From contig JAHWIN010000031.1 of NCBI GenBank assembly GCA_019322475.1, forward strand, positions 1-58,523: DNA of 58,523 nucleotides. The letters are read 5' to 3'. This document shows positions 17,148-58,424 of this stretch, piece by piece. The notes under the pieces are model-generated. The model was not told the origin of the DNA. It did not search any database and saw nothing but the letters and a program-made list of their open reading frames with translations. Every line of letters starts with the position of its first letter. The first letter of the stretch is position 1. The stretch comes from Candidatus Woesearchaeota archaeon. Its GTDB lineage: Archaea; Nanobdellota; Nanobdellia; Woesearchaeales; JACPBV01. Both the position numbers and the translations under genes were made by a program.

Positions 17148-17171
17148 GCCCACCAGACCCCTGGCTTTGCC

Positions 17172-26684: not shown

Positions 26685-26894
26685 TTTTTCACCTCGTAAT
26701 CTATGTTTTAGGATTAACAATCCTTATGTATGTCTTTTCTCCTCTACTTTATATATTTTTTGGTTTAAATCTTACGGCGGAGACCAACCGATAAAAAAGA
26801 AACAACATGGCTTTTTTGATCTTCTTTTTATAAAATAAAATATTTTATCTTCTTGCCTTTCTCATGAGGGTACTGCTATCATCCGGCAGCAGGC

Positions 26895-34867: not shown

Positions 34868-35040
34868 AGCATATCCTTAAGTGCGGGGATTGCGGAGCAT
34901 ATACCCTTAAGGAGGTATGCCCTAAATGCGGGCGAGCTGCTGTAACTCCTATCCCCCCTAAATATTCCCCATCTGACAAATATGGAGCCTACAGGAGAAA
35001 GGCAAAATCAGGATCATTAAAGGAGGCCGGCATAATATGA
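34864..35040 (+). CDS. nop10: H/ACA RNP protein Nop10
   Basis: Absent from the track because it is under 60 aa. My translation is MKHILKCGDCGAYTLKEVCPKCGRAAVTPIPPKYSPSDKYGAYRRKAKSGSLKEAGII. It has ATGA overlaps with both neighbours. Confidence 0.85.
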   Translation: MKHILKCGDCGAYTLKEVCPKCGRAAVTPIPPKYSPSDKYGAYRRKAKSGSLKEAGII

Positions 35041-36925: not shown

Positions 36926-39900
36926 ATGAAAACAAAACAACTATGGGCTTTGATCTTTTCGGTGCTTTTGCTGCCTATAGTATTTGCACAACCTCCTACT
37001 CCTTCAGGTTTTTTTGGAACTGCAACTTTAGATTCACAGCCGATAACGGCCGGAACGACAGTAGATGCTTATGATCCTGACGGCATCCTTTGCGGCACAT
37101 TTACCAATCCGGGGGGCATCCAGGAAGGGTATTATGGTTCTTTGTTCTGTTCAGGAGATGATTCTGAAACTTCGCAGGATGAAGGGGCGGAACAGGGAGA
37201 CCAGATAACATTCTATATAAATGGGTTTTCAGCTTCTTTAGTGCTTTCTTCTACGACAGATGATATGTGGACAGAAGGGGGAACAAAATGGGGGACTAAC
37301 CTGGAGGCATATTCCGGATGCCAGAATGACCTTGAGTGTGATGACGGGGTGTACTGCAATGGAGCTGAGATCTGTAATATTGTAAGCCATGAGTGTGAAG
37401 CAGGAACACCAGCAGACTGCAATGATGATGTTGACTGCACATATGACAGCTGCAACGAGGCTACAGACAGCTGCGACAACACAGCAGATGACGCTTACTG
37501 TGATGACAACTTGTGGTGCAACGGAATAGAGACATGCGATGCTATAAACGACTGCCAGGCAGGGACTGCTCCTGTCCTTGATGACGGCGTTTCCTGCACT
37601 GTAGACCAGTGTGATGAGGCTAATGATGAAATCACACATACGCCTGACGACAGCCTTTGCTTAGACGGCCTGTGGTGCAACGGAATAGAGACATGCGATT
37701 CTATAAACGACTGCCAGGCAGGAACACCAGCAGACTGCAATGATGATGTTGACTGCACAGACGACAGCTGCAACGAGGCTACAGACAGCTGCGACAACAC
37801 TGCAGATGACGCTTACTGTGATGACAACTTGTGGTGCAACGGAATAGAGACGTGCGATTCTATAAACGACTGCCAGGCAGGGACTGCTCCTGTCCTTGAT
37901 GACGGCATTTCCTGCACTGTAGACCAGTGCGACGAGGCTAATGATGAAATCACACATACGCCTGACGACAGCCTATGCTTAGACGGCCTGTGGTGCAACG
38001 GAATAGAGACATGCGATGCTATAAACGACTGCCAGGATGGTATCATCCCAGATTGTGATGACGGCATTTCCTGCACTGTAGACCAGTGTGGTGAGGGTAT
38101 AGACCTGGACGACAATCTTGGCACATGCATCTATGACACCTCTTCCTGCTCCTGTGTTTTAGATACTGACTGCGATGACGGCAACCCATGCACAGATGAC
38201 ACCTGCAATCCTGACCTGACATGCTCTCACACCAATAATGATGCAAACAGCTGCAACGACGGCCTTTACTGCACGATAAATGACCACTGCTCTTCAGGCT
38301 CATGCACCTCTGACCAGAGGCCTGCAGATGACGGCATTTCCTGCACTGTAGACCAGTGCGACGAGGCTAATGATGAAATCACGCATACGCCTGACGACAG
38401 CCTTTGCTTAGACGGCCTATGGTGCAACGGCGCTGAGTACTGTGATCTCTTGCAGGACTGTCAGGATGGCACCAGCATTGACTGTGGTGATGAGGTTTCC
38501 TGCACTGTAGACCAGTGTGATGAGGGCATAGACCTTAACGATAATCTTGGAGTATGCACCTATGACACCTCTTCCTGCGCCTGCGCTTTAGATACAGATT
38601 GCGATGACGGCAACCCCTGCACAGATGACACCTGTAATCCTGACCTGACATGCTCTCACACCAACAATGATGAAAACCAATGCGATGACGGATTCTTCTG
38701 CACCATAAATGACCACTGCTCTTCAGGCTCCTGCATCTCAGCAGACCTAAGGCCTTTTGATGACGGCATTTCCTGCACCTATGACAGCTGTGACGAGGCT
38801 AATGATCAGATATTGAACGAGCCTGATGATTCTTACTGTGATGATGACCTATTCTGCAACGGCATGGAAATATGCGATGCTATAAACGACTGCCAGGACG
38901 GAACACCAGCAGACTGCAATGATGATGTTGACTGCACAGAAGACAGCTGCAACGAAGCCACAGACAGCTGCGACAACACTGCAAGTGACGCTTATTGTGA
39001 TGACAACTTGTGGTGCAACGGCCAGGAGACATGCCACGAGTTAGACGACTGCCAGGACGGAACTGCCCCTACCCTTGATGACGGCATTTCCTGCACTGTA
39101 GACCAGTGCGACGAGGCTAATGATGAAATCACACATACGCCTGACGACAGCCTTTGCTTAGACGGCCTGTGGTGCAACGGAATAGAGACATGCGACGCTA
39201 TAAACGACTGCCAGGATGGTATCATCCCAGATTGTGATGACGGGGTTTCCTGCACTGAAGACAGCTGCGATGAGGGCATAGACCTTAACGATAATCTTGG
39301 AGTATGCACCTATGACACCTCTTCCTGCAGTTGCGCTTCAGATCCAGACTGCGATGACGGCAACCCATGCACAGACGACACCTGCAATCCTGACCTGACA
39401 TGCTCTCACACCAATAATGATGAAAACCAATGCGATGACGGATTCTTCTGCACCATAAATGACCACTGCTCTTCAGGCTCCTGCATCTCAGACTTAAGGC
39501 CTTTTGATGACGGCATTTCCTGCACCGATGACAGCTGCGACGAGGCTAATGACAAGGTATTGAACGAGCCTGACAATCTTAAATGTGATGATGAAAATGA
39601 ATGCACCAAGGATGTTTGCGACGATATTAACGGCTGTTCTAACAACCCTGATGATGAGCTTATTGATAAACCATGCGGAGAGTTTATCGTGTGTCCTCCT
39701 GCTAAGTGTGAGGGTCCTATTGCACAGTTCTATCCTTCTGGAGGCCGTGGCTTCTGTGGCTATGATGGAGAATGCTGGGATTATTTATGTGAAATAGTGG
39801 CCTTACACTGCTCAGATGATGACCCTTTTGATGGTGTAAACGGCCTGCAGTGCGGAGCAGAGTGCGATCAGGATGAAGATTGCCCATGCCAGAATGAATG

Positions 39901-40567
39901 CATAGACTCAGATGGTGACGGGATCATAGACGATTATAAGTGGCATACTACTGCCTATGGCTCATGTGATGCAGGATGTGAATGCACGGGCTGCCAGCCA
40001 GACATATCCCTGGATGACCAGAGGTGCATAACTACGATGAAGTTTCCTATAGAGGCAGGGGCAAGCATCTTTTCCCTTCCTTTGATCCCTGAGACAGAAG
40101 TAACCTTTGACGCTATAAACCCAAGAATGGAAGATAGAGACGATGGAAGTGTCGATTGTTCTTTTCCTTCAGGGGTCTTAGCTGGGATAGCTTATTGGGA
40201 TCCTTTAAAGACACCTGAGAAGGATGGATCCAGGTATAGGCTCCTTTTTTCAGACAGTACCCTTTATCCTGGACAGGGCTATTACACCACCCAGGACCAT
40301 GATTGCAGCCTTAAAATGGAAGGGTATGAGTTCACTGCAGAAAAATTAGGGTATCTTGGAACCGGTAAAATATATAATGGATGGAATATGATAGGGGCTC
40401 CAAGCGAGGGGCTGGATGATTTTGACCTTGTTGATGAAAACTGCACCGTCATAAGCGGACCCTGGAGGCGTAACCCTGTTGAAAAGGAGTATGAGAGAAC
40501 TCAGGAGCTTGTGCCAGGGAAAGGCTATTTTATAAATGTAACAACCGAAATCTGCAGCCTGGGATAA
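36926..40567 (+). CDS. Giant secreted Cys/Asp-rich repeat protein (1213 aa) with a C-terminal GWNL-type module
   Basis: Signal peptide MKTKQLWALIFSVLLLPIVFA. Three module types are each reiterated 3-5 times: CNDDVDCT.DSCNEATDSCDNTADDAYCDDNLWCNG.ETCD, DDG.SCTVDQCDEANDEITHTPDDSLCLDGLWCNGIETCD.INDCQ.G, and DCDDGNPCTDDTCNPDLTCSHTNND..CDDG.FCTINDHCSSGSC. The C-terminus holds FSLPLIPE...GWNMIGAPS...GKGYFINV. Confidence 0.75.
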   Translation: MKTKQLWALIFSVLLLPIVFAQPPTPSGFFGTATLDSQPITAGTTVDAYDPDGILCGTFTNPGGIQEGYYGSLFCSGDDSETSQDEGAEQGDQITFYINGFSASLVLSSTTDDMWTEGGTKWGTNLEAYSGCQNDLECDDGVYCNGAEICNIVSHECEAGTPADCNDDVDCTYDSCNEATDSCDNTADDAYCDDNLWCNGIETCDAINDCQAGTAPVLDDGVSCTVDQCDEANDEITHTPDDSLCLDGLWCNGIETCDSINDCQAGTPADCNDDVDCTDDSCNEATDSCDNTADDAYCDDNLWCNGIETCDSINDCQAGTAPVLDDGISCTVDQCDEANDEITHTPDDSLCLDGLWCNGIETCDAINDCQDGIIPDCDDGISCTVDQCGEGIDLDDNLGTCIYDTSSCSCVLDTDCDDGNPCTDDTCNPDLTCSHTNNDANSCNDGLYCTINDHCSSGSCTSDQRPADDGISCTVDQCDEANDEITHTPDDSLCLDGLWCNGAEYCDLLQDCQDGTSIDCGDEVSCTVDQCDEGIDLNDNLGVCTYDTSSCACALDTDCDDGNPCTDDTCNPDLTCSHTNNDENQCDDGFFCTINDHCSSGSCISADLRPFDDGISCTYDSCDEANDQILNEPDDSYCDDDLFCNGMEICDAINDCQDGTPADCNDDVDCTEDSCNEATDSCDNTASDAYCDDNLWCNGQETCHELDDCQDGTAPTLDDGISCTVDQCDEANDEITHTPDDSLCLDGLWCNGIETCDAINDCQDGIIPDCDDGVSCTEDSCDEGIDLNDNLGVCTYDTSSCSCASDPDCDDGNPCTDDTCNPDLTCSHTNNDENQCDDGFFCTINDHCSSGSCISDLRPFDDGISCTDDSCDEANDKVLNEPDNLKCDDENECTKDVCDDINGCSNNPDDELIDKPCGEFIVCPPAKCEGPIAQFYPSGGRGFCGYDGECWDYLCEIVALHCSDDDPFDGVNGLQCGAECDQDEDCPCQNECIDSDGDGIIDDYKWHTTAYGSCDAGCECTGCQPDISLDDQRCITTMKFPIEAGASIFSLPLIPETEVTFDAINPRMEDRDDGSVDCSFPSGVLAGIAYWDPLKTPEKDGSRYRLLFSDSTLYPGQGYYTTQDHDCSLKMEGYEFTAEKLGYLGTGKIYNGWNMIGAPSEGLDDFDLVDENCTVISGPWRRNPVEKEYERTQELVPGKGYFINVTTEICSLG
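37898..38064 (+). repeat. Intragenic long repeat, copy A (167 bp, near-identical to 39077-39243)
   Basis: Both copies run from gatgacggcatttcctgcactgtagaccagtgcgacgaggctaatgatgaaatcacacatacgcctgacgac to gattgtgatgacgg. I saw only two mismatches by eye. Shorter related copies start near 37578 and 38329. Confidence 0.8.
39077..39243 (+). repeat. Intragenic long repeat, copy B
   Basis: See copy A. The two copies are 1.18 kb apart within the same ORF and in the same frame. Confidence 0.8.
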
Positions 40568-40666
40568 ATTTTCTTTTTTACGAGTTCAATAATAAAAGAG
40601 GTGATAATGTAGGCAGAGTTAGAGTAGTGAGGTTAGAAGATACAAACAAAACACTGGTGAGAAAAA

Positions 40667-41383
40667 ATGACATTACTTTATACAAGAAACCATAGAGGCA
40701 GGATAATAAGCAAACTTAATCCGAGGAATCCAGATATGCCTCTCTATAACCAAATATTCTCATATGCGACATTAGTTGCAATGTCACTTTATATCTCTGT
40801 CTTCGGTGTGGGTTGTAGCAAAAGTAAGGGGGGGTCTGAAAATCCAAATATCCCTTCACAATCAGACTCTAACACATCTACCCCTCAATCAGACTCTAAC
40901 ACATCTACCCCTCAATCAGACTCTAACACATCTACCCCTCAATCAGACTCTAACACTTCTATCTTTGACCCCATAACTGGAGTCCCTCGTTCTCCTTTTG
41001 ACTTAAGCATATATAATATCCCCCAGAAAAAAACGACGGATGAGATTGTTCAACACTATATTAAAAAATCACTATCTTATGACCCGAATTCAGATGTAGA
41101 TAGGGCTGTTCTGAGATATATTTATAGTTCATTCTCTCCCTCCAACGCGGGAGGCGTATATCCTATGCATGACCCTAATAGGAACCAACAGGACCATGGC
41201 TGCTTTATTACTAGTTTGTCTAACTATCTTAATGCATCTTCTCCCAATAAAATTCATGGATCCAGGAATAATTATCCTCCTGATATTAGCTATGAATGTT
41301 TGGGACCAGATTACCATAAATTTTCTAATCATTTTGAGCCATATAACCTAAGGAGGCGTGATATAAATTGCAGACCACATTAA
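40667..41383 (+). CDS. Lipoprotein-like protein with a (TSTPQSDSN)x4 tandem repeat
   Basis: The lipobox-like SVFGVGC follows a hydrophobic stretch, then SQSDSNTSTPQSDSNTSTPQSDSNTSTPQSDSNTS. An alternative start is the ATG at 40736 (MPLYNQ). Confidence 0.5.
   Translation: MTLLYTRNHRGRIISKLNPRNPDMPLYNQIFSYATLVAMSLYISVFGVGCSKSKGGSENPNIPSQSDSNTSTPQSDSNTSTPQSDSNTSTPQSDSNTSIFDPITGVPRSPFDLSIYNIPQKKTTDEIVQHYIKKSLSYDPNSDVDRAVLRYIYSSFSPSNAGGVYPMHDPNRNQQDHGCFITSLSNYLNASSPNKIHGSRNNYPPDISYECLGPDYHKFSNHFEPYNLRRRDINCRPH
40859..40956 (+). repeat. 27-bp tandem repeat, ~3.6 copies (CAATCAGACTCTAACACATCTACCCCT)
   Basis: Three perfect copies occupy 40859-40885, 40886-40912 and 40913-40939, followed by a 17-nt partial copy. 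All are in frame within the CDS. Confidence 0.9.
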
Positions 41384-43614
41384 TCACTGTTTTTTTATTT
41401 TTGCTCCTTTTACCTACTGTCAGTGCCAGCTATTTTACCGGAAACTTCAATGATCATGGGGAGGACATAGATTCTGACGGGCTTTTTGACTATCTTACTG
41501 TCAGGGCTGAGACCTATATCGACAAGCTGTCTTCAGGATACGAGTTCTTTGGGATGCTTCAGGACAGCGAGGGTAACGTATTAGAGTCAAGAACATGCGA
41601 AGAGCCTTCTTTTACCGGAAAACAATACCTTGAGCTGGATTTTTCAGGGACACAGCTTTACAGGAAAAAGGTAAACGGGCCTTATACCTTAAAGTATATA
41701 GAGATAAGCCCTAAGGACTGCGGCGGTGGAGGGATGGCTCCTCCGATGCCTCCTGAGTCTTCTCTGCATGATGCTTATACGACAGGACCGTACCTGTACA
41801 GCCAGTTCCAGAGCGGAGAGCCTGCAGTATACTGTGAGAGTTCTCCCTGTGTGGCATCGTCTTCCCTGATAGGGTCCAGGGATAATATCAATATTCCTGA
41901 GCCTAATTCCCCCAATACTATAGATTCATGCAAGGATGGGGGGGCAGGGTCATACCTTCATGACGAGTCGATAGAGAGCATAACAGCTACCAGCCTTGGC
42001 AGCGGCTTTTTCAAGGCAGGGGGCGATGTTGATGTGGAGGTGCAGGTTTACTGCAGCAGCCCTATGGACAAGCTTAATCTTGTATATTCTAACGACATAG
42101 ATGATATAGAATGGGAAGTGAAAGAGACCATGCAGTGCAGCTCAACAAAAGCGATGGAAACCATGTCAGCGTCATTTTTTCTGGATGATAATGCAGGGGA
42201 GCATGCAATAAGGTGCGTTTTTGGGCAAAATCTTGGTGAAGGCGAGGTATGCGGCGATGATAATTATGATGACAATGATGATATAGTCATTTATGTGAAG
42301 GAGTGCAATTCTGCAGGAGACTGCCAGAAGACAGAATGCGACCATCTGGACAGCTCTGCAGCAGGCTGCTATGGCGGGACTTATAGGGATTATAGTGATA
42401 TGCTGAATGAATGTAAGGTGGATTTTACATGCACGAAAAAAACATGCACAAGCTACAGCGAGATAATAACAGATAATGACGGTGACGGCTATGATACAGA
42501 ATGCGACAATGACTGTGATGACAGCAACCCGGATGCCAGTCCGGGGGCAGAGGAGATATGCTATAACGGCATAGATGATGACTGCAACGGATATACAGAC
42601 ATGGATGATCCGGAGTGCATGGGGAAGCACATGATCAGCCTGAAGAAGGGATGGAACCTGGTGTCTATACCTGTAATAAGCAGCAATAAGATAATTGAGA
42701 ACCCTGATCTCTCGAATGCAAACGTCAATAAGATAGCTGCACTTAAAAAAGGCGAGTGGAAGCTTTATGACGGGACCTCAAACTCAAACCTTGAGGAGCT
42801 TTTTAACCATGACGGGTTCTGGATCAGCTTAGAAGAAGATACGCCTATCCTGGTGGATGATGCAGAGGAAGAGGTGACCAGCTTTAGCCTTGCAAGGGGG
42901 TGGAACCTTATAGGGTACCCTTCTTTTGAGGAGAAGGACATAATGCTGCTGTTCAGCGATGTTATGGACAACATACTTAAGATATATGTTTATGACGGTG
43001 AATTCAGGCCTTTTAACCCTAAAAACCCTTCCAGCATAACCATAGGCCCCGGAGCAGGGATATTTGTCATGGTAAGTGGCGATGAGACATGGCACTTTGA
43101 CGGGGTGTATAAAAAAAGCAAGCAGAGCTTTAAGCTTGAGATACCTTCCGGATGGAGCCTGATCAGCCTGCCTTTGGCCCAGGAGGATACGGTCTCTGAG
43201 GTTTTTGGGGGGAATAATCTGTATTATCTTGAGGACGGCCTTTGGAAGGACATAAGCGGAAGCAGCACCATCCCTCTCAAGTATAGTTATTGGATCGATT
43301 CACCGGGAATCTCAGCAGATATAGAAGGCTATCTTATCCACAGCCTTGACATCGAAATAAATAAGGGATGGAACACGATAAGCTTCCCCAGGATGGAAGA
43401 GAAGGGCGCAGGGGAATTATTTTATGATGTTAAGGAAGATATAGATCTTGTAGAAACCTTTGAAGACGGGGAATGGAAGGTCTTTAGCCCTTCGAGGCCT
43501 CCTATGCTGAACTCATTAATATCTATAAAGCCGGGAGACGGGATATTTGTCAAGGCGAGAAACAGTGCTGAATGGAGATTTGAAGGAGACCACATAGAAA
43601 GGAGGGATGATTGA
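41368..43614 (+). CDS. Secreted protein with a MopE-like Cys/Asp metal-binding-type motif and four GWNL modules
   Basis: A TTG start lies 11 nt after AGGAGG. The signal peptide is MQTTLITVFLFLLLLPTVSA. DNDGDGYDTECDNDCDDSNPDASPGAEEICYNGIDDDCNGYTDMDD matches the DGDGY...CDD.NP...PGA.E.C.NGIDDDC pattern. The four modules read KGWNLVSIPV, RGWNLIGYPS, SGWSLISLPL and KGWNTISFPR. Confidence 0.65.
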   Translation: MQTTLITVFLFLLLLPTVSASYFTGNFNDHGEDIDSDGLFDYLTVRAETYIDKLSSGYEFFGMLQDSEGNVLESRTCEEPSFTGKQYLELDFSGTQLYRKKVNGPYTLKYIEISPKDCGGGGMAPPMPPESSLHDAYTTGPYLYSQFQSGEPAVYCESSPCVASSSLIGSRDNINIPEPNSPNTIDSCKDGGAGSYLHDESIESITATSLGSGFFKAGGDVDVEVQVYCSSPMDKLNLVYSNDIDDIEWEVKETMQCSSTKAMETMSASFFLDDNAGEHAIRCVFGQNLGEGEVCGDDNYDDNDDIVIYVKECNSAGDCQKTECDHLDSSAAGCYGGTYRDYSDMLNECKVDFTCTKKTCTSYSEIITDNDGDGYDTECDNDCDDSNPDASPGAEEICYNGIDDDCNGYTDMDDPECMGKHMISLKKGWNLVSIPVISSNKIIENPDLSNANVNKIAALKKGEWKLYDGTSNSNLEELFNHDGFWISLEEDTPILVDDAEEEVTSFSLARGWNLIGYPSFEEKDIMLLFSDVMDNILKIYVYDGEFRPFNPKNPSSITIGPGAGIFVMVSGDETWHFDGVYKKSKQSFKLEIPSGWSLISLPLAQEDTVSEVFGGNNLYYLEDGLWKDISGSSTIPLKYSYWIDSPGISADIEGYLIHSLDIEINKGWNTISFPRMEEKGAGELFYDVKEDIDLVETFEDGEWKVFSPSRPPMLNSLISIKPGDGIFVKARNSAEWRFEGDHIERRDD

Positions 43615-43615
43615 T

Positions 43616-44716
43616 ATGATCCTTAAGAGACTGATATTTATTTTTGCAACGGCCTTATTGTTATCGGGGCTTATCTCTCCAGCATATGGGTGGATTCCTC
43701 CGCCTCCAGGGACTAGCTGGGAGAACAACAATTCCCAGGAAACTTCCTTATCCTATGATTCGACGCTTCAGATGGAATCTTTTAAGATAGAGGTCGACGG
43801 GAAAACCGACAGCATAGGGAAAAATGGGAGTAAGATCTCAAGAGAGGCTAAGGAGGAGTCAGACATAGAGGTAAGGCTCAGCATCAAGAATATATGGGAA
43901 AAAGATATAGAGGATATCGATATCGAAGCAGCCATAGAGGACATAGATGATGGTGACGACCTTAAGGCTGATGATGACATAAGCCTGCTGGAGCCTGGCG
44001 ACTCTAAGAGGGCTGATCTTGATTTTAAGCTTCCCTTAAGGGTTGATGAGGGCAGCTACACCTTGGTGATAGAGGCAAAGGGAATTGATGAGGATCATAA
44101 TGTCCATACCCTGAGCTGGGAGGCTGTACTTGAGGTGGAGAAAGAAAAGCATAACCTGAAGATCACAAAGGCTTCATTATCCCCTTCTACAGCCAGATGC
44201 GGAGAGAACCTAAGGCTGAGCCTGGGCATCCTTAACCTTGGGAGGGATGAAGAGGAGGTTAAGATAGAGATAAAGAACGAATACCTTGAGGTAGATATAA
44301 TTGAAGAAGGGGTAGAGCTGGGCACAGGAACGGATAATGATGCCTCCTATGAGAAATCCTTCAGGCTTACCCTCCCTTCCAGCATAGAAAGCGGGACATA
44401 CTATCTTGATGTGAATGCATATTACGATGACGGCAAAAGCCCGGTTTCAGAGAAAAAGGAGATTGCAGTTGAATGCATAACAGGGGCAAACAAGGAGGTG
44501 AGGCAGCTTCCTGTAAAATCCCTTCCCCCCACTGTTTCAGAGAAGTTAAGCACGCTTGGGGAAGAGAAGAGCACCAGCGCAACAATATCTGCGGAAAGCA
44601 GGAAGTCTGCTGTCCTGCTGTTTACTCTGCTTTTTTTGGCTATGCTTGGCCTTATCATCTTCTTATTGGCGGTGATCATAATAATAAACGGCCGCCGGAG
44701 AAAGAGAGCCATATAG
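43616..44716 (+). CDS. Secreted surface protein with a C-terminal TM anchor and basic tail
   Basis: Signal peptide MILKRLIFIFATALLLSGLISPAYG. Two acidic beta-sandwich-like modules follow, possibly CARDB-like (LKITKASLSPSTARCGENLRLSLGILNLGRDEEEVKIEIKNE). The C-terminal anchor reads AVLLFTLLFLAMLGLIIFLLAVIIIINGRRRKRAI. I prefer the ATG at 43616, 9 nt after AAGGAGGG. Confidence 0.6.
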   Translation: MILKRLIFIFATALLLSGLISPAYGWIPPPPGTSWENNNSQETSLSYDSTLQMESFKIEVDGKTDSIGKNGSKISREAKEESDIEVRLSIKNIWEKDIEDIDIEAAIEDIDDGDDLKADDDISLLEPGDSKRADLDFKLPLRVDEGSYTLVIEAKGIDEDHNVHTLSWEAVLEVEKEKHNLKITKASLSPSTARCGENLRLSLGILNLGRDEEEVKIEIKNEYLEVDIIEEGVELGTGTDNDASYEKSFRLTLPSSIESGTYYLDVNAYYDDGKSPVSEKKEIAVECITGANKEVRQLPVKSLPPTVSEKLSTLGEEKSTSATISAESRKSAVLLFTLLFLAMLGLIIFLLAVIIIINGRRRKRAI

Positions 44717-46469: not shown

Positions 46470-47726
46470 TCACTCTTTTATCAGGCCATAGCCTATAAGC
46501 CTGAACCTGTTGCCTATCATCCGGGATATGGTCACTCTTGAACCTATCTCTGCGCAGACAGGGAGCTTTAGCCTGCATTTTATATGGCTTTTTTTAAGTT
46601 CAGAAACTATGCCTACTGTTGCAGCAGAGTTTACATTGAGCATCAGGACCTCATTCAGCTTTATGGGCTCAACATCCAGGTCTTCTTTTGACCCTACGAC
46701 CCTTTTAAGAAGATTGGTTGCCAGTTTCAGCTCATACCAGACAGGAGGCAGTTTTCCGGAAAGCCCAACTATGGATCCGGTCAGCTTATCAGAGAATACA
46801 ATAGAAGGGTCCAGAGAGGTCAATACACCAATAGAGCCTCCAGGGCCCACTTCTTTTAAAGAAGCGCTTCCTGATCTTAGGTCAATTATCCTGGCTTTCA
46901 GGGTTTTCCATACCTTCCTGTTTTTTTCCTCTACCTCATAGCCCGGCTTGATCTCTATCTCTTCGCCTTTTTTCAGTATCCCCTGCTTTAAGGCCCCTCC
47001 AAGAACACCTCCCTGTATCTTTTCTATCCCTATCCCAGGCTTGTTGACATCAAAGGATCTTGCAACAAGCATCAGGGGGTCTTTTTTGGTGTCCCTTTTG
47101 GGCGTCTTGATATTTTTTTCTACAGCCCCTATCAATTCTGAGACCCCAACATTATGCTGGGCTGAGATAGGTATTATGGGAGCATCCCTGTATTTTGTGG
47201 ACTTTATGAAGCTTTTTATCTGCTTGTAATTCTTTACGGCCTGCTCTTCATTGACCAGGTCTATCTTGTTCTGGACTATGACTATATTCTCTATCCCTAT
47301 TATCTCCATAGCCATTATATGCTCCCTTGTCTGGGGCTGAGGGCATTCCTCATTTGCGGATATCAGAATCAATGCTCCGTCTACTATGGTAGCTCCTGCC
47401 AGCATGGTGGCCATCAGGCTTTCGTGGCCGGGAGCATCCACGAAGCTTACTTTCCTAACCGCTTTTGTTTTTTCCTTGCAGGAGGGGCATTCTTTTTTTA
47501 CGGTGTACAGTCCGCATTTTTCACATCTCCTGAAAGTTACGTCAGCATAGCCCAGCCTTATCGTTATGCCCCTTTTCATCTCCTCAGAATGAGTATCTGC
47601 CCACTTTCCGCTTAGCCTTTCAAGCAGGGTGGTCTTTCCATGGTCAACATGGCCGACTAACCCGATATTTACTACAGGGTTTTTAGGCTCTTCATCTTTA
47701 GGTGCTGCAGATTTTTTTCTTGGCAT
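46470..47726 (-). CDS. eif2g: Translation initiation factor aIF2 gamma subunit
   Basis: G-domain motifs NIGLVGHVDHGKTTL, VDAPGHE, NKID. A zinc knuckle reads C.KCG...CPSC. Length 418 aa. Confidence 0.92.
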   Translation of the reverse strand: MPRKKSAAPKDEEPKNPVVNIGLVGHVDHGKTTLLERLSGKWADTHSEEMKRGITIRLGYADVTFRRCEKCGLYTVKKECPSCKEKTKAVRKVSFVDAPGHESLMATMLAGATIVDGALILISANEECPQPQTREHIMAMEIIGIENIVIVQNKIDLVNEEQAVKNYKQIKSFIKSTKYRDAPIIPISAQHNVGVSELIGAVEKNIKTPKRDTKKDPLMLVARSFDVNKPGIGIEKIQGGVLGGALKQGILKKGEEIEIKPGYEVEEKNRKVWKTLKARIIDLRSGSASLKEVGPGGSIGVLTSLDPSIVFSDKLTGSIVGLSGKLPPVWYELKLATNLLKRVVGSKEDLDVEPIKLNEVLMLNVNSAATVGIVSELKKSHIKCRLKLPVCAEIGSRVTISRMIGNRFRLIGYGLIKE

Positions 47727-47729
47727 ATT

Positions 47730-48254
47730 TTACTTTTTCTCTTCTTCTTTTGGAGCTTCTTTAGCCGCTTCTTTCTTTTCTTCTTTCTTAGGCTCTTCTT
47801 TTGGAGCTTCTTTAGCCGCTTCTTTCTTTTCTTCTTTCTTAGGCTTCTCTTTGGCGGGCTCTTCACCTTCTTTTTTTGCAGAAGGCAGGACATCTTCTAT
47901 CTTTTTGGTCCCTTCCTTAACAATCTTTAGGTTTATCTGGGTTATCTTTTCGTTTATCTTATGCCCGCAGACGGTCTTTCTTGTCTTTTCCCCTTTCTTA
48001 AGCTTTGGGAAGCCTACCCCTCCTGTGGAATATATCTTTTTTCTTATGCCCTGTATGCCGTGTCTCATAGGGAATCCGCAGTAGTCAGAGCCGCCTGTTA
48101 TGAGGAACTCGTATCCAGGCATCCCGAAAGAGTCTCCGCTTACATTTTCCCCGATATTCAGGTTGAGGAAAACCTGCGCTTCCTGGTCTTTAGCCTCTTT
48201 TTGATAGCATTTTCCTGTTTTAGCGTCACCTATACATAATTTGAATGAAACCAT
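47730..48254 (-). CDS. rps6e: Ribosomal protein S6e (eS6) with a Lys/Glu/Ala/Pro-rich C-terminal extension
   Basis: FKLCIGDAKTGKCYQKE...GYEFLITGGSDYCGFPMRHGIQG is the S6e core. The tail reads PKKEEKKEAAKEAPKEE twice. Confidence 0.88.
   Translation of the reverse strand: MVSFKLCIGDAKTGKCYQKEAKDQEAQVFLNLNIGENVSGDSFGMPGYEFLITGGSDYCGFPMRHGIQGIRKKIYSTGGVGFPKLKKGEKTRKTVCGHKINEKITQINLKIVKEGTKKIEDVLPSAKKEGEEPAKEKPKKEEKKEAAKEAPKEEPKKEEKKEAAKEAPKEEEKK
47744..47845. repeat. 51-bp perfect tandem duplication (x2) encoding the S6e tail
   Basis: 47744-47794 and 47795-47845 read identically (cttcttttggagcttctttagccgcttctttcttttcttctttcttaggct). Confidence 0.85.
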
Positions 48255-52403: not shown

Positions 52404-52937
52404 CTAATCCTGAGTGGCTACGTTTTCCACTTCTATGAGGTATGATCCGGGTATCTTTTTCCTGAACCTTTCCAGCCCTTTTTTTGCTGTGCCTATGTTC
52501 TGCTTGCTGACAGATATGCTGACTATCTTCTCACCTTTTTTTACCCTTATGGCAGAGCCTATTGGCTTTCCGAACGACTTCTGCATGCCTGTCGAGAACC
52601 TGTCTGCCCCTGCACCTGCTGCAAGGGGGTTTTCCCTCAGTATATGGAAAGGGTATTTTCTTAGCTGCATGCTGTATCTAGAAGGGCCTAATGTTGTCTC
52701 AAGAAGCCTGTTGCAGGTCTGCCTTCCGCTTTCTAACGCATTGTCCCTTATCTGAAGGCATCCTTTTGATATAAGATTTAAGGAGTATGGAAATTTCTTT
52801 TTTAAGTTTCCAGTCTTAAACTTGACTATCTTAATATTGGCTGTCGTCCTGATAAATGATTTTTTCTTGTATTTTGAGAGCCTTGTGTAGGGCCTTTCCA
52901 GCGACCTATATGCCACGAATTTCCTAAGTCTTGCCAT
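52404..52937 (-). CDS. rpl10e: Ribosomal protein L10e (uL16)
   Basis: MARLRKFVAYRSLERPYTR...KYPFHILRENPLAAGAGADRFSTGM; 177 aa. Confidence 0.9.
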   Translation of the reverse strand: MARLRKFVAYRSLERPYTRLSKYKKKSFIRTTANIKIVKFKTGNLKKKFPYSLNLISKGCLQIRDNALESGRQTCNRLLETTLGPSRYSMQLRKYPFHILRENPLAAGAGADRFSTGMQKSFGKPIGSAIRVKKGEKIVSISVSKQNIGTAKKGLERFRKKIPGSYLIEVENVATQD

Positions 52938-53859: not shown

Positions 53860-53937
53860 CTTACAGCATAATAAACTTTATAAACTTTGTTTTTTCGATG
53901 CTTGTTAGAGGATAATCCTGTAAGGAGGGTGATAATT

Positions 53938-54183
53938 ATGGGCGACGAAAAAGACATCTATTCTGAGGAAGGGAGAGAGGATCTTGTAGAGGCTGACGAG
54001 ATAAGCCCTTTGGAGGAGGGCTTTATGGAAGGTGCTGAAGGCGACGGGCAAGGCGCCAAATGCAGAAGGTGCGGCAAGATACTTATGGACGATTTTATAG
54101 AGAAAAAGATCGATGACGAGATATGCAGGTTCTGCAGCGACGAATGCGCCGATAAGTACAGCGAGGAGAAAAAGGAAGAATAG
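53938..54183 (+). CDS. Small acidic protein with a C-terminal TRASH/zf-FCS-like zinc domain
   Basis: The ATG at 53938 is preceded by GGAGGGTGA. The C-terminus reads CRRCGKIL...........CRFCSDECADKY. The N-terminus shares the EEGFM motif with the ORF at 46122-46271. Confidence 0.55.
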   Translation: MGDEKDIYSEEGREDLVEADEISPLEEGFMEGAEGDGQGAKCRRCGKILMDDFIEKKIDDEICRFCSDECADKYSEEKKEE

Positions 54184-54297: not shown

Positions 54298-55494
54298 TTA
54301 TGTACCAGGTGCAGCAGATTTCCCCTTATTCCTGTCAGGGACAAAGAGAAGGAACAGAAGGCCTAATGCAAAGAACAATAACAGGACTGTCAGGGCAGCA
54401 TTGTAGCCGGCCTTGACTACAACAAAGCCGAATATTATGGGGCCTAAGACACCTGAGAATTTTTCTGTCAGGCCCTGAAACCCGAAAAGCTGGGCAACCT
54501 TATTTTTTGGAGCAAGGTTTACAAGCATGGGCCTTGTCACTGTCCATACTGCGCCTAAGGCAGCCCCTCCGAGGCAGCCTGCTATTATGAATGTTGTTAT
54601 GCTGGACAGCTCCATAAGAAGGACTATTATGAATGCCCAAGTCAGCAAAAGGGTTATGAGCGTCCTTTTGGGGCCTATCAGGTCTGAGACCTTTCCAAAA
54701 GCCAACGACCCTATTATCGCTGCAAGCGCAAAAAGGGCATAAAAATAGAAGAATGTTGTCAGGCTTAGGCTTATCTGCTCTTTTGCATACAGGTAAAGAA
54801 AAAGGATGACAGTGTTCATGCCGTCTGTGTAAAGGAAGGAGGCTATCAAAAACGGAAGAAGGCCCTTGTGCTGGGGCATATTCCTGAAGGTATCTTTTAT
54901 ATGGCGGAATGCCTTTTTCATGTTTTCCTTAAGCGGGAGTGCTGCTTTTTTTGCCTTGTCCTTTACAAGCTTAAACGTGACCAATGAGAACGAAAGGAAG
55001 AATAGTGCAGTGAAGGGAAATATGGCTTTTATCCCTGTTACTGAGCCCCATCCAAAAAAGCTTATGATGCAATAGGCTATCGCCAGGCTTAATATAACGC
55101 CTACATAGCCGAGGGCAACACCATAGCCTGATATCTTTCCCCTGTTTTCGCTTGTCGATATGTCGACCAGCTTGGCATCATATACATCGAGGGCGGTGTG
55201 GTAGCTCAACATGGCTATAAGGGCAAAGGCAAGGGCGAAGTAAAGAGGGACATAAGCTGTCAATGCCGTAAATATGACGCATATGATGGTAAAGGATATT
55301 ATGAAGCTCATCCTTTTTCCGCTGACATCAGACAGGGCTCCTATGAAAGGGACGATAATGCCTGCCAGGAGCATCGAGATGCCTGAAACAAGCCCTATCT
55401 GGAACTCATTTCCCCCTAAGTATACCTTGACAAGCAGGGGAAAGAAGAACGTGATGAAAAGGGCTGAGAAAGCTGTGTTTGCCAGATCATACAT
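54298..55494 (-). CDS. MFS transporter (N-terminus resembles the UMF1/Atg22-like subfamily)
   Basis: About 12 predicted hydrophobic helices. The N-terminal YDLANTAFSALFITFFFP resembles the YDWANSAY motif I associate with UMF1-family MFS proteins. The gene lies 23 nt downstream of the acyl-ligase fusion. Confidence 0.7.
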   Translation of the reverse strand: MYDLANTAFSALFITFFFPLLVKVYLGGNEFQIGLVSGISMLLAGIIVPFIGALSDVSGKRMSFIISFTIICVIFTALTAYVPLYFALAFALIAMLSYHTALDVYDAKLVDISTSENRGKISGYGVALGYVGVILSLAIAYCIISFFGWGSVTGIKAIFPFTALFFLSFSLVTFKLVKDKAKKAALPLKENMKKAFRHIKDTFRNMPQHKGLLPFLIASFLYTDGMNTVILFLYLYAKEQISLSLTTFFYFYALFALAAIIGSLAFGKVSDLIGPKRTLITLLLTWAFIIVLLMELSSITTFIIAGCLGGAALGAVWTVTRPMLVNLAPKNKVAQLFGFQGLTEKFSGVLGPIIFGFVVVKAGYNAALTVLLLFFALGLLFLLFVPDRNKGKSAAPGT

Positions 55495-55517
55495 ACACCA
55501 GCCGAATATCTCTTTTT

Positions 55518-58016
55518 TTAGAGTGATTTTACACTATCCTCTATTTTTTTGGTAATCTCTGAGTACGGCGCATAGGTAGAATATAAACCTTTTGAAAATC
55601 CCAGGTATTGGCCAGGGTATATAGGCTTTCCGAACTTAAGCATAACCCTGCCCCTTTTTTTTGGGAAATTAGAGCCTCTTGGGAGTATCCGGAACAGCCC
55701 CTCTATCCTCACAGGGACTATAGGGACCTTCATGTTTGAGGCTATCAAACCTATGCCCTGCTTAAACGGCCTTATCTTTCCGTCTTTTGTCCTCTCGCCT
55801 TCAGGGAATATAAGTATGTTAAAGCCCCTGCTTATGAGCTCGCCTGTGTACCTTATGCTTTTTATGAAGCCTTTTTTTTGGGAGAAGAGGTATAGGTTAA
55901 GGAGAGCGGTTCCAAGCTCAAGCATGGCCCTTTTTTTTATCCGCTTAAAGACACTTTTCACTTCGAAATACTCTTTTGATGCTGCAATCGCCATATCTTT
56001 TTTGAGGTATGAAGGCAGCTTTGACATTATCACCAACGAGTCAAAATGGGAGGTGTGATTAGAGACAAAGATAACAGGAGGGCTTAATGGGCTTAGGTTC
56101 TCTTTCCCTTTGACATCTATGCTGCAGAAAATCCTCATTATAGGGAATATGAGCAGTTCCTGCGTTATGCGCCTTACCGTCTTTATGGGCCATCTCAATG
56201 CCCATCTTCTTTGCTTTTGCACTTCAGAAGCTTTTCTTTCTATCAGCTTTTTCAGGTCCCTTACTGTTGTCTTGTCCGTTATCAGCTCCTCTTCTATGTC
56301 GATATTGAACTCCTGCTCGATCTCTGAAACCAGCTCTACCCGGTCTATCGAGCTTAGCTTGAGATCATACACAAGGTTTGATCTGGGCCTTATGCTTCCT
56401 TCGCTTACCCCCTTTATGCCGGCGATGATAGAATATACCCTGCCTTTTTCCGGCTCTGTCCCCTGTTTTTTTCCCAGCACCTGCTTTTTTACAGCATCCC
56501 TTACAATGTTCTTCTTTATCTTCATAGTTGATGTCCTGGGGAAGTCCTTCATAGGCCATACCGTGCTGTCCTTGATCTGCTGGTATTGTGAAAGCCTTTT
56601 GTTTGCCTGTCTGATGATCTTCCCTGCTTCGTTCTCATGCCCTTTCTCCAGAAGAAGGACTGCGTGGACCTCTTCCTGGCCCTCCTCTTTTACTCCGATG
56701 ACACAGCTTTCCTTCACGCCTTTGATGCTGTTCACCACATCCTCTATGTCCTCAGGATAGACATTGACCCCTTCGGGAGTGGCTATCATGTCTTTTTTCC
56801 TGCCTTTTATGAACAGGAAGCCTTCATCGTCAAGGCACCCTATGTCTCCTGTGCGCATCCAATTATCTGCGAACAGCTTTTTTGTCTCTTCATCCCTCTT
56901 ATAATATCCCTGTGTTATATTGCTGCCTTTTACAAGTATCTCATCATACTGCCCTATCTTTACATGGACATCAGGAATAACTTTTCCTACAGAGCCGATC
57001 CTCCTTTTTTTAGGGGAATTGCAGGATACTACAGGAGAGCATTCAGTCAGGCCGTAACCCTGGATGAGCCTGAAGCCCATAGAGTCCCAGAACCTTTCCA
57101 GGCTTATGCTTAACGGAGAGCCTCCCACGATAAGGAACCTTACCTTGGGAAACAGCTTATGGACCTTCCTGAAAAATATCCTGCCTGAGAAAGGGACCCT
57201 TTCGGCTATCTTTAGCGACCTTTCAAGCGCCTTTTCCTTTCCCTTCTTTTTGGCTTCAGAGGTTATCCTTTTTTTCAGGGACTGAAGGATCCTTGGCACC
57301 AGGACCATGATAGTGATATCCTCCTTCAGGGCATCAAATATGGCTGAGGGCTTTAAGGATGAGATGTATACTATCGAAGAGCCTGAGCTTAACGGGGTAA
57401 AAAGGCCGACTGTCTGCTCAAAGAGGTGGCTTAAAGGAAGAAGGGAAAGGAACCTGTCTTTAGGGCTTAGCCTGAAGACCTTTTTAAGTGAGCTTATGTT
57501 TGATGTTATGTTCTTATGGGTAAGGATGACCCCTTTTGGGTTTCCTGTGGTCCCTGACGTGTAGACTATCTCCACTATGTCCTCTTTTTTTATGCTTTCT
57601 TTCTTTTCTGAAGGATTTATGCCTTCAAGGAGGAGATCCAGGTCTTCCAGGATAATCCTTTTTGCCTTGATCTTTGCGCTCCTGTATCTTGTAGAGAAAA
57701 GCAATCTGGGTTTAGCCTGCTGCATGACCCTCCCTATGAAGTCGTCTGTGCACCTTATGTCCAGGGGGACAAGGATCACGCCTTTTAATATTGCACCGAA
57801 GAAAACTATAAGGTATGCAGGGGAATTATAACCCATGACTGCGATCCTGTCACCTTTCCTTATGCCGCTCTTTTCCAGGAAGGCAGCAAATCTTTTTATA
57901 TAGCTGTGAAGCTTTGAGTAGGTCCAGCGGAACTCCCTGAATTCTGCCTTGTGGATGACAGCTATATCATTATCGTACTGCTTGAACCTGCTTACCAGTT
58001 GGACAAGTGTTTCCAT
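55518..58016 (-). CDS. Tri-domain fusion: acyl-AMP/CoA ligase (ANL) - phosphopantetheine carrier domain - PlsC/LPLAT acyltransferase
   Basis: ANL domain: VYTSGTTGNPKGV, GYGLTE, TGDIG, plus a late K. Carrier domain: LVYDLKLSSIDRVELVSEIE (DSL-type Ser). Acyltransferase domain: FVSNHTSHFDS (HxxxxD), IFPEGERTKDG, PIVPV. Confidence 0.8.
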   Translation of the reverse strand: METLVQLVSRFKQYDNDIAVIHKAEFREFRWTYSKLHSYIKRFAAFLEKSGIRKGDRIAVMGYNSPAYLIVFFGAILKGVILVPLDIRCTDDFIGRVMQQAKPRLLFSTRYRSAKIKAKRIILEDLDLLLEGINPSEKKESIKKEDIVEIVYTSGTTGNPKGVILTHKNITSNISSLKKVFRLSPKDRFLSLLPLSHLFEQTVGLFTPLSSGSSIVYISSLKPSAIFDALKEDITIMVLVPRILQSLKKRITSEAKKKGKEKALERSLKIAERVPFSGRIFFRKVHKLFPKVRFLIVGGSPLSISLERFWDSMGFRLIQGYGLTECSPVVSCNSPKKRRIGSVGKVIPDVHVKIGQYDEILVKGSNITQGYYKRDEETKKLFADNWMRTGDIGCLDDEGFLFIKGRKKDMIATPEGVNVYPEDIEDVVNSIKGVKESCVIGVKEEGQEEVHAVLLLEKGHENEAGKIIRQANKRLSQYQQIKDSTVWPMKDFPRTSTMKIKKNIVRDAVKKQVLGKKQGTEPEKGRVYSIIAGIKGVSEGSIRPRSNLVYDLKLSSIDRVELVSEIEQEFNIDIEEELITDKTTVRDLKKLIERKASEVQKQRRWALRWPIKTVRRITQELLIFPIMRIFCSIDVKGKENLSPLSPPVIFVSNHTSHFDSLVIMSKLPSYLKKDMAIAASKEYFEVKSVFKRIKKRAMLELGTALLNLYLFSQKKGFIKSIRYTGELISRGFNILIFPEGERTKDGKIRPFKQGIGLIASNMKVPIVPVRIEGLFRILPRGSNFPKKRGRVMLKFGKPIYPGQYLGFSKGLYSTYAPYSEITKKIEDSVKSL

Positions 58017-58017
58017 C

Positions 58018-58353
58018 TTATTTCAGGATAAGGGCTGCGTATGCGGCAGCATAGTCCTTGTCATGCGATATGCTGCAGGACATGCTTACCAGGCTTTTTA
58101 TCTTGATGTCTTCGCTTAGCGTCACTTTTGGCTCTCCGCTTCTCTTATTTGTTACTTCTATAGAAAGCCACCTGGGCTTTATCCCCAAAGCCTTGAAGAA
58201 CGCCTCTTTCAGGGCAAATATGCCTGCAAGGTGCTCTGCATCCATCACCTTAAGCTCGCTTTTGCTGAAGATCCTGCCAAGAACTCTCTTGTTTCTGGTT
58301 ATCTTTTCTATCCTGGGGATATAGGCTATGTCTATCCCTGTTTTTAGCTGCAT
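58018..58353 (-). CDS. acpS: Holo-[acyl-carrier-protein] synthase (AcpS-type 4'-phosphopantetheinyl transferase)
   Basis: GIDIAYIPRIEK...IFS..E.........LAGIFALKEAFFKALG...IEV.....GEPKV.L.........SISHDKDYAAA. The 111-aa length is typical of AcpS. Its stop lies 1 nt from the fusion gene's start. Confidence 0.75.
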   Translation of the reverse strand: MQLKTGIDIAYIPRIEKITRNKRVLGRIFSKSELKVMDAEHLAGIFALKEAFFKALGIKPRWLSIEVTNKRSGEPKVTLSEDIKIKSLVSMSCSISHDKDYAAAYAALILK

Positions 58354-58424
58354 ATACCATTCTTATCTTCTTTGTTTATAAATTTAACCTGTTTTCAGCC
58401 CCGTAGAAATCCTATGCTACTACA

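Follow-up and report, generated by a model that had tools for sequence, protein, structure and literature searches.

How do cells without the genes for lipid synthesis obtain their membranes? The question applies to both the DPANN archaea and the bacteria of the candidate phyla radiation (CPR), which are described as lacking lipid synthesis, with CPR fractions found to be enriched in lysolipids (PMC7242380). It is raised by one end of the 58,523-nt stretch of DNA analyzed here (contig JAHWIN010000031.1 of assembly GCA_019322475.1, Candidatus Woesearchaeota archaeon), which at its full length is called the window. Three genes on its minus strand encode an AcpS-type phosphopantetheinyl transferase, a fusion of a fatty-acyl ligase, a carrier and a PlsC-like acyltransferase, and a transporter of the major facilitator superfamily (MFS). 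With middling confidence, we propose that the fusion is a self-priming enzyme that joins scavenged fatty acids to scavenged lysolipids and so re-acylates them, so that the genes would form a fatty-acid salvage and lipid re-acylation module, and with it a concrete, compact and testable candidate for the membrane supply of such cells. An acyl-lipid enzyme of the ElbD-like or Aas-like kind is known; new is the archaeal form with a dedicated priming enzyme and a transporter.

Layout of the locus and its host

The module comprises three intact open reading frames (ORFs) on the minus strand, 58353..58018 (111 aa), 58016..55518 (832 aa) and 55494..54298 (398 aa), which are separated by 1 nt (position 58017) and 23 nt (55495-55517). 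The ORF listing thereby matches exactly the co-directional trio described in a first-pass annotation of the sequence, whose identification of the products as AcpS, ligase-carrier-acyltransferase fusion and MFS transporter is upheld by Pfam and NCBIfam. The motifs it quoted (YTSGTTGNPKG, LSSIDRVEL, NHTSHFD and FPEG) are all found on re-translation and, judged by profile E-values far below chance, the domain matches are not chance motifs. A TATA-box-like element read from the sequence, TTTATAAA (58375..58382, minus strand), lies about 22-29 nt upstream of the AcpS ATG and is a possible, weakly indicated archaeal promoter of the three-gene unit; upstream of AcpS, the contig stops after 170 nt. 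A GGTG Shine-Dalgarno-like element is located inside the 23-nt gap ahead of the MFS gene, and the two elements together would fit, as weak evidence, a single archaeal transcription unit.

The remaining window is archaeal by its marker genes, namely two PurP genes (1187-3530), aIF2-alpha (34094-34867), PAC2 (35037-35819), aIF2-gamma (46470-47726), ribosomal protein S6e (47730-48254) and ribosomal protein L10e (52404-52937), in agreement with the archaeal host that had been deduced from the translation apparatus. GC content is flat (0.41-0.46) over the last 10 kb of the contig. From about position 45 kb as far as the fusion gene, the window shows synteny with a contig from the Woesearchaeota metagenome-assembled genome (MAG) GCA_019323195, on which the order is MazE-domain protein, aIF2-gamma, Band7, aminotransferase, MscS, L10e, MFS and fusion. 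The nearest homologues of AcpS, the fusion and the MFS protein alike are Woesearchaeota or Nanoarchaeota records. By these markers and homologues, the source organism is a DPANN archaeon of the Woesearchaeota type.

Domain composition of the encoded proteins

The AcpS-type 4'-phosphopantetheinyl transferase (111 aa; 58018..58353, minus strand) is assigned by both Pfam and NCBIfam, with matches to PF01648 (ACPS; 5e-13, 49.5 bits against a cut-off of 25), TIGR00516 (acpS; 67.8 bits against 59.8) and TIGR00556 (75.9 bits against 45.35). It aligns over its full length to the AcpS of Helicobacter pylori (5XUK, 7.5e-11) and Bacillus subtilis (1F80, 7e-8), with which the motifs GIDI, LKEAFFKAL (KEAxxKA) and SISHD are conserved. 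Going by B. subtilis AcpS, we take the GxD, the Glu and Lys of KEAxxKA and the S-I-[ST]-H to be the Mg2+- and CoA-binding residues. Like these group I transferases, the window protein is a single domain of about 110-120 aa with the Asp/Glu/Lys/His motifs; it differs from them in its archaeal host, where AcpS is normally absent (PMC3533463). The premise of the first-pass annotation that archaea generally lack acyl carrier protein (ACP) and AcpS is backed for most archaea, from which both ACP and ACP synthase (AcpS) are missing (PMC3533463).

The 832-aa fusion (55518..58016, minus strand, as are all coordinates within it; Pfam and NCBIfam) joins a long-chain fatty-acyl ligase of the ANL type, an ACP-like carrier and a PlsC-like acyltransferase of the lysophospholipid acyltransferase (LPLAT) type. 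Pfam places AMP-binding at aa 12-372 (PF00501, 1e-74; 56901..57983), AMP-binding_C at aa 424-499, PP-binding at aa 526-591 (PF00550, 2e-9, 37.9 bits; 56244..56441) and Acyltransferase at aa 633-771 (PF01553, 6e-21; 55704..56120). Conservation was judged in an alignment of 12 fusion homologues with 41-60% identity (A1). All 12 share the P-loop, Glu325 (GYGxTE), Asp391, Arg406, the A10 Lys499 and the carrier Ser556, as well as Asn653, His654, Asp659, Pro738, Glu739 and Gly740. A misalignment of the carrier serine or the acyltransferase dyad had been named beforehand as damaging to the assignment; Ser556 and His654/Asp659 do align with the catalytic sites.

Within the AMP-binding domain lie the P-loop YTSGTTGNPKG (aa 152-162; 57531-57563) and the GYGLTE motif (57042-57059). 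The segment WMRTGDIGCLDDEGFLFIKGRKKD (56790-56861), aligned to Escherichia coli FadD, carries the fatty-acyl-CoA-synthetase (FACS) signature, which marks the fatty-acid-specific ANL members; together with the ANL C-terminal subdomain it spans 56484..56861, with the catalytic A10 Lys499 at 56520-56522. The core motifs A3 (YTSGTTGNPKG), A5 (GYGLTE), A7 (TGD), A8 (GRKKD) and A10 (K499) do not vary in A1 and line up with their counterparts in FadD and Aas, and the fusion family has a 35-aa insert of the ACSL type after A4. The best solved relative is FadD13 (3R44, 8e-52), compared to 3e-21 for the fatty-acyl-AMP ligase 3PBK, and sequence identity amounts to 30% with E. coli FadD and to 27% with the ligase domain of E. 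coli Aas (over 414 aa, E 4e-40). By these sequence features the ligase is of the FadD/ACSL type with a FACS signature; the chain length of its fatty acid and the loading in cis are our inference.

The carrier holds its phosphopantetheine-attachment residue, Ser556 (56349-56351), in LSSIDRVEL (motif L-[ST]-S-[IV]), with L-[ST]-S in place of the D-S-L of typical ACPs. A profile search against the PDB aligns it to the ACPs of type II fatty-acid synthesis (FAS; about 1e-10) and puts Ser556 onto their DSL serine, and Foldseek superposes it on AcpP-type ACPs with a template-modelling (TM) score of about 0.8 and a root-mean-square deviation of 1.5-2 A. It resembles a type II FAS ACP, the substrate class of AcpS-type transferases, and not the peptidyl carrier protein of a nonribosomal peptide synthetase. 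An AcpS-type enzyme beside an ACP-type carrier makes a coherent pair, and the window AcpS is predicted to convert the carrier of the fusion from the apo to the holo form. No free-standing ACP was seen in the window.

An AlphaFold2 model of aa 515-832, built on 25 homologues, reaches a mean local confidence (pLDDT) of 89 and a predicted TM score (pTM) of 0.79. Directly before the acyltransferase core it contains an amphipathic/hydrophobic helix of 22 residues, WPIKTVRRITQELLIFPIMRIF (aa 609-630; 56127..56192), which corresponds to residues 95-116 of the modelled C-terminal construct, has a pLDDT above 90 and includes the invariant R615. By analogy with the N-terminal helices of Thermotoga maritima PlsC, it is a probable membrane-interface anchor. 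The core itself shows motif I, NHTSHFD (aa 653-659; 56040-56060), with the HX4D dyad His654/Asp659, motif III, FPEG (aa 737-740; 55797-55808), and VPIVPV as motif IV. T. maritima PlsC (5KYM) is the best match for aa ~620-830 both by profile against the PDB (1.3e-19) and by fold (Foldseek E 2.8e-11, TM 0.61 normalised to the target), followed in the fold search by glycerol-phosphate acyltransferases (GPATs) and PatA. HX4D, FPEG, VPxxP and an N-terminal helix before the core are common to both; the window domain differs in that its acyl donor is tethered in cis and that it does not stand alone. For motif II, the comparison ran via E. coli PlsC. The motif-II Arg of PlsC contacts the phosphate of glycerol-phosphate. 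In a single MAFFT alignment of this gapped region with E. coli PlsC and Aas, the Arg (LLIDR) is replaced by Tyr or Phe throughout the fusion family (LNLY, VNAY, LNLF, FNIY), and by Phe in Aas. The absence of the Arg hints, tentatively, at an acceptor other than lysophosphatidic acid (LPA). The fusion has no PlsC-equivalog match above the NCBIfam cut-off.

The third gene (54298..55494, minus strand) encodes a UMF1/Atg22-like MFS transporter of 398 aa with 12 predicted transmembrane helices (PF07690 4e-38, PF11700 3e-30; AlphaFold2 pLDDT 87, pTM 0.87). Its named homologues are all from Woesearchaeota or Nanoarchaeota. Profile searches against the PDB and Foldseek returned generic MFS matches alone (SV2A, SLC45A4, LmrP, NorA and an Rv1410 homologue). 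We infer, as a candidate role, the import or flipping of either the fatty acid or the acceptor. An orthologous relation to E. coli LplT was considered and rejected, as BLASTP gives E 0.9, a likeness at the superfamily level at most. Convergent with the MFS gene lies a gene (53887-54183) for an acidic 98-aa protein with a C-terminal CxxC...CxxxC zinc ribbon (weak zf-FCS match); in one relative locus (L002; Lnnn denotes fetched relative loci or contigs), small ORFs of similar size occupy its place. In another, L173, a DUF763 gene and a small zinc-finger gene stand where L001 has AcpS and the fusion (L173:7305-11050 versus L001:8889-13725), and a stand-alone 482-aa AMP-binding gene is found about 3 kb upstream.

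Distribution and gene linkage

The fusion belongs to a large family. A word-indexed search yields more than 7000 homologues; all of the 120 listed carry both AMP-binding and Acyltransferase domains, and for nearly all a PP-binding domain is called as well. A profile of carrier plus acyltransferase retrieves 1320 clusters (50% identity) at E <= 1e-30, of which the best 150 are almost all about 800-860 aa long or fragments. Named members come from Woesearchaeota, Pacearchaeota, Patescibacteria, Geobacteraceae, Acidobacteriota, Terriglobia, Bacteroidales and Gammaproteobacteria. A scan of genome contigs with the full-length alignment, which includes generic ANL motifs, gave mostly ordinary acyl-CoA ligases among the matches listed, with L006-L011 and L014 as full-length relatives; a metagenome scan with a narrower alignment (A3) gave, again among the matches listed, mostly soil bacterial homologues.

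The partners of the fusion differ between hosts. In non-CPR bacteria (L003, L007-L011, L089 and L090, placed by title or flanking genes), including Acidobacteriota, Geobacteraceae and Bacteroidales, the fusion occurs without AcpS or MFS adjoining. The same holds for about 70 unlabelled metagenome loci, many from soil, four of which have a measured GC of 63-67%. These bacteria are organisms with larger genomes and with their own AcpS and FAS; a dedicated AcpS makes sense in DPANN and CPR because these lack the FAS machinery. By tblastn, AcpS lies next to or near the fusion in L001, L004-L006, L087, L088, L091-L093, L108, L111, L114, L119 and L148. Furthermore, 27 AcpS homologues have contigs that reach 3 kb or more, and 21 of these share their contig size in bp with a fusion homologue, an aggregate proxy for co-location that is unsafe for single pairs, as L113 (GC 0.67) and L173 (GC 0.34) both measure 87,549 bp. 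AcpS homologues thus appear to lie mostly on the same contigs as fusion homologues.

Eleven fetched loci, on 10 distinct contigs, have the MFS gene beside the AcpS-fusion pair or one gene away, and the gene order varies among them. The order AcpS, fusion, MFS is found in the window and L001, MFS, AcpS, fusion in L088/L093, fusion, AcpS, MFS in L108 and L148, fusion, AcpS, hydrolase, MFS in L114 and L119, and AcpS, hydrolase, MFS, fusion in L091; in L111, a divergent MFS gene is located upstream of the pair. L087, L092 and L006 have AcpS and fusion only. Flanking genes identify L001 (Cdc45/GAN-like protein, TrmB), L087 (S15P/S13e, S-layer domain), L088 (proteasome, exosome, SBDS), L108 (PAN) and L114 (GatE) as archaeal. 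The flanking genes of L111, L148 and L092 belong to universal families only, and these three loci were left unplaced by domain of life.

The hydrolase of the DPANN loci is a serine alpha/beta-hydrolase with an N-terminal hydrophobic segment, likely a membrane anchor, and the motifs GFSLS, HGEKD and DHG. Its copies in L091, L114, L119, L001 and L173 are mutually orthologous (45-82% identity). It lies within the module in L091 (1820-6822), L114 (4486-9216) and L119 (2106-7439) and 4-5 kb off in L001 (4207-4986) and in L173 (4022-4879). Similarly, the CPR loci L004 and L005 present a PGAP1-like, lipase/esterase-like alpha/beta-hydrolase (L004:6966-7649; L005:6998-7681), then AcpS, then the fusion. 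The CPR hydrolase is unrelated to that of DPANN and occupies the equivalent place. L004 is bacterial by L25p, UvrA, MreB/FtsA and RuvX, and L005 by a bacterial-type NusG and a fused GuaA. In three high-GC soil bacterial loci, the fusion is preceded by a divergent gene for a 307-aa NAD-dependent epimerase/dehydratase on the other strand, directly in L096 (3369-4292) and L170 (3432-4355) and with one gene in between in L113 (1746-2669).

Phylogeny and transfer

Neighbor-joining trees with 200 bootstrap replicates resolve several clades at 100% support: the window with the homologues P0002 and P0009 (P00nn denotes homologue sequences), a Pacearchaeota/Woesearchaeota clade (P0012/L091, P0028, P0030 and others), a second archaeal 'triad' clade (L108, L111, L114, L119 and L148), a clade uniting CPR L004/L005 with archaeal L087, and a soil clade. 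AcpS and the fusion, usually with MFS and sometimes with a membrane-anchored hydrolase, recur in no fewer than four archaeal clades that are well supported. The outer bacterial clades (soil/Acidobacteriota and Gammaproteobacteria/Bacteroidales) split from the rest at 81% support, and opposite them stand further bacterial lineages together with all archaeal sequences. Deeper relations among the archaeal clades receive bootstrap values of 0-1%, and we therefore make no claim on DPANN monophyly or on the number of transfers beyond the well-supported clades.

In L087 (9681-12478; Woesearchaeota GCA_016192915), AcpS and the fusion are nested among CPR sequences at 100% bootstrap. This grouping with L004/L005 rather than with the archaeal clades points to gene exchange, so that at least one CPR-DPANN exchange is, by the tree, well supported. 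The breadth of the family is bacterial, which makes a bacterial origin the parsimonious reading. Of the horizontal acquisition proposed in the first-pass annotation, the bacterial affinity is therefore retained, given the bacterial outer clades. An isolated, recent transfer is not, because numerous DPANN contigs carry these genes, and in more than one order; we conclude that DPANN have had the module for long and have widely retained it, and that it is not a recent acquisition by the source genome. A 6-kb contig of a Methanosarcinales-labelled MAG (L006, CAYWOP010000055.1) also carries AcpS and a fusion with 39% identity to that of the window; it groups weakly with Geobacteraceae-type sequences and could represent either an error of binning or one more acquisition by an archaeon.

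Relation to described systems

Matched by domain order and description, the closest described relative is the architecture of ElbD, with acyl-CoA synthetase (ACS), ACP and acylglycerol-phosphate acyltransferase (AGPAT)-like domains (PMC9131029), and not Aas. ElbD of Myxococcus xanthus (MXAN_1528) has ligase, ACP and AGPAT-like acyltransferase in the same order in one polypeptide; its ACS and ACP activities were confirmed in vitro (PMC9131029), and it is proposed to act in alkyl-ether lipid formation. The N-terminal FAR1-like fatty-acyl reductase (FAR) domain is ElbD's own and is lacking in the window fusion. Neighbors of the elbA/B/C/E type are absent beside the latter as well, with no NAD_binding_4 or Epimerase match in the fusion itself or in the neighboring window ORFs. 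The window fusion further stands apart by its archaeal host and by its own AcpS, MFS and, in relatives, hydrolase. ElbD-like homologues without the FAR domain were noted in other bacterial phyla as uncharacterised proteins (Lorenzen et al. 2014, as summarised in PMC9131029). The epimerase/dehydratase neighbor, seen solely with the high-GC soil homologues, recalls Myxococcus elbE beside elbD.

E. coli Aas, encoded with LplT, likewise combines fatty-acid activation on a carrier and lysolipid acylation in one protein with an MFS neighbor, and was the likeness drawn in the first-pass annotation. For the ligase this likeness holds, as seen above; for the transporter it fails, LplT belonging to a different MFS family than the Atg22/UMF1-like protein of the window, and ElbD offers the nearer architecture. 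Aas shares HX4D and FPEG with the window fusion and equally lacks the motif-II Arg, with only local similarity (54 aa) between the acyltransferases. Pfam domain comparison bears out that the domain order is reversed, from N-terminal acyltransferase and C-terminal acyl-ACP synthetase in Aas to ligase, carrier and acyltransferase, and that the carrier is built in, whereas Aas has no PP-binding domain and borrows free ACP. The same functional logic is described for AasC (CT776) and LpaT (CT775) of Chlamydia trachomatis, which bring host fatty acids into the bacterium's own membrane as two separate proteins with free ACP (PMC5693948), while in the window all is fused. Chlamydia keeps a full FAS II (PMC6167442); the window AcpS appears to serve one carrier.

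No ACP-producing or ACP-requiring enzymes were reported in surveyed CPR genomes (PMC7242380), and Woesearchaeota carry Fab and cyclopropane-fatty-acid synthase genes (PMC10936187). PlsC-family matches in DPANN have been tabulated and ascribed to transfer from bacteria (PMC6431249), and 'ElbD hits' in Woesearchaeia have already been reported, with speculation on the modification of host bacterial lipids (PMC11868695); both reports treat these DPANN matches as a passing remark. In the literature searched, the coverage of which is incomplete, we found no description of an AcpS-fusion-MFS(-hydrolase) module in DPANN or of hydrolase-AcpS-fusion in CPR.

Proposed function and alternative readings

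In the proposed pathway, the dedicated AcpS would move phosphopantetheine from CoA onto Ser556 of the in-cis carrier. The FadD/ACSL-type ligase would then adenylate a free long-chain fatty acid and thioesterify the acyl group onto the same carrier, which would make a free ACP, and possibly acyl-CoA, unnecessary. Finally, the PlsC-like domain, with its N-terminal helix at the membrane, would use the His654/Asp659 dyad to transfer the acyl group to the hydroxyl of an acceptor, most probably a lysophospholipid derived from the host or the environment rather than LPA. The UMF1-type MFS protein may deliver or flip the acceptor or the fatty acid and, in relatives, the membrane-anchored alpha/beta-hydrolase may free fatty acids or lysolipids from foreign lipids. 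The first two steps are backed by strong homology together with the ACS and ACP activities that ElbD showed in vitro (PMC9131029); for the third, the basis is homology with PlsC and with Aas, plus the lipase-type partner genes. Indeed, the partners of the module are lipid-flavoured, comprising a lipase/esterase in CPR, a membrane-anchored hydrolase in DPANN and the MFS protein.

Several points weigh against this proposal. Known DPANN membranes consist of host-derived isoprenoid ethers and offer no obvious lyso-acyl acceptor, and the acceptor of the proposal is a deduced one. The window contains neither a hydrolase like those of L091, L114 or L004 nor other acyl-lipid genes. The motif-II argument hangs on one MAFFT alignment of a gapped region, and neither LplT nor any lipid-transporting MFS is specifically similar to the MFS protein. 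Woesearchaeal L173, which is syntenic with L001, keeps the MFS gene without AcpS and fusion, so the transporter is not strictly dependent on the pair and may work independently of it. Last, the acyltransferase activity of ElbD could not be demonstrated in vitro (PMC9131029).

The alternative that survives best, in our estimate an unlikely one, retains the chemistry and changes the acceptor to something other than a lysophospholipid: a lyso-aminolipid (OlsA-like), a glycolipid or sugar, a monoether archaeal intermediate or a small metabolite, possibly imported or exported by the MFS protein. It would accommodate the loss of the Arg that contacts the phosphate in PlsC, the ether lipids that DPANN are thought to carry, and an Atg22/UMF1 family without a known lipid substrate; the LPLAT superfamily also includes non-phospholipid acyltransferases, with PatA among the fold matches here. 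Yet PlsC, followed by the GPATs, is the top match in both sequence and fold, Aas is a genuine lysophospholipid acyltransferase that lacks the same Arg, and the module is linked with lipase/esterase-type hydrolases in CPR and DPANN alike.

We consider it improbable that the fusion is an ether-lipid enzyme of the ElbD type, which would acylate dihydroxyacetone phosphate or glycerol-3-phosphate (G3P), or supply an acyl or aldehyde intermediate, in the first step toward alkyl-ether lipids. The shared ACS-ACP-AGPAT order (PMC9131029), the 'ElbD hits' in Woesearchaeia MAGs (PMC11868695) and the elbE-like divergent NAD-epimerase/dehydratase of the high-GC soil homologues fit such a role, but the FAR/NAD_binding_4 domain is absent from the 832-aa fusion, and neither the window nor any archaeal or CPR locus examined has ElbE-, ElbB- or AGPS-like neighbors; the partners there are AcpS, MFS and hydrolases instead. 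There is also little probability in our view of a true PlsC, that is, an LPA acyltransferase in de novo phosphatidic-acid synthesis with exogenous fatty acids replacing FAS. PlsC is an LPA acyltransferase and the top PDB match, PlsC and PlsY homologues are listed for DPANN (PMC6431249) and some Woesearchaeota have G3P dehydrogenase (PMC8204110). Against this, the fusion does not conserve the motif-II Arg of PlsC, PlsY, PlsX and CdsA are absent from the window and the fetched flanks, and NCBIfam gives no PlsC-equivalog match above cut-off. The chance that the 54-58 kb end is a bacterial fragment joined to an archaeal contig by assembly or binning, a worry voiced in the first-pass annotation that the terminal position (AcpS 170 nt from the end) and the typically bacterial protein families of the module might feed, is negligible, because GC is flat (0.41-0.46) across the region and archaeal synteny extends up to the fusion gene, with L10e, MscS, aminotransferase, Band7 and aIF2-gamma adjoining the module in the same order as in GCA_019323195; the module is, moreover, embedded in clearly archaeal contexts in L001, L087, L088, L108 and L114, and a TATA-like box precedes AcpS.

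Other features of the window

Elsewhere in the window, a dense cluster (8483-21368) encodes a KamA-family radical-SAM aminomutase (AblA-like, just below the cut-off), a diaminopimelate-decarboxylase-like pyridoxal-phosphate enzyme, an unknown 455-aa protein, a glutamine amidotransferase (GATase), an alanine-dehydrogenase-like protein, a fusion of ATP-grasp and GNAT domains and four tandem D-Ala-D-Ala-ligase-like ATP-grasp genes. The latter all remain below the Ddl cut-offs, and two of them weakly match an archaeal 'pseudomurein ATP-grasp' model. Judged from its gene content, the cluster looks like a peptide or beta-amino-acid ligation pathway, which would be unusual for DPANN. Two adjacent cupredoxin-domain proteins (217 and 152 aa) are encoded beside a 637-aa CARDB-domain protein (25515-28808); genes of the cupredoxin/nosZ-like kind are a subject of discussion for DPANN from oxygen-deficient zones (PMC10936187). 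The GC-richest stretch (36926-44716, up to 0.496) contains a 1213-aa ORF with a DUF5975 match only, a 748-aa ORF with a MopE-type metal-binding motif and unannotated neighbors; the products are probably large surface proteins. The two PurP genes (1187-3530) are tandem paralogues (DUF1246 and DUF1297) that overlap by 20 nt, the second encoding 446 aa with a TTG start and extended by about 90 aa at its N-terminus. Neither the Rfam nor the tRNA scan gave a match in the window.

Implications for DPANN and CPR membranes

The fusion family as such is ordinary in bacteria, and the interest lies in the conserved, self-sufficient form found in lipid-auxotrophic DPANN and CPR. A broader possibility, which we put forward tentatively and hold to be somewhat doubtful, is that many DPANN and CPR organisms without fatty-acid and lipid synthesis build or repair their membranes with one self-priming enzyme that esterifies scavenged fatty acids onto scavenged lysolipids, resulting in some archaea in ester-linked fatty-acyl or mixed ether/ester membrane lipids from an ACP-dependent enzyme of their own. 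If true, this broader scenario would represent a natural crossing of the 'lipid divide' and an adaptation common to, and exchanged between, two episymbiont radiations. If the module itself works as we propose, it would account for the conversion of free fatty acids and lysolipids into membrane lipids in DPANN and CPR cells, would predict ester-bound acyl chains in some archaea and would document gene sharing between CPR and DPANN. Finally, it would provide a first function for a large uncharacterised bacterial family of around 1300 clusters at 50% identity.

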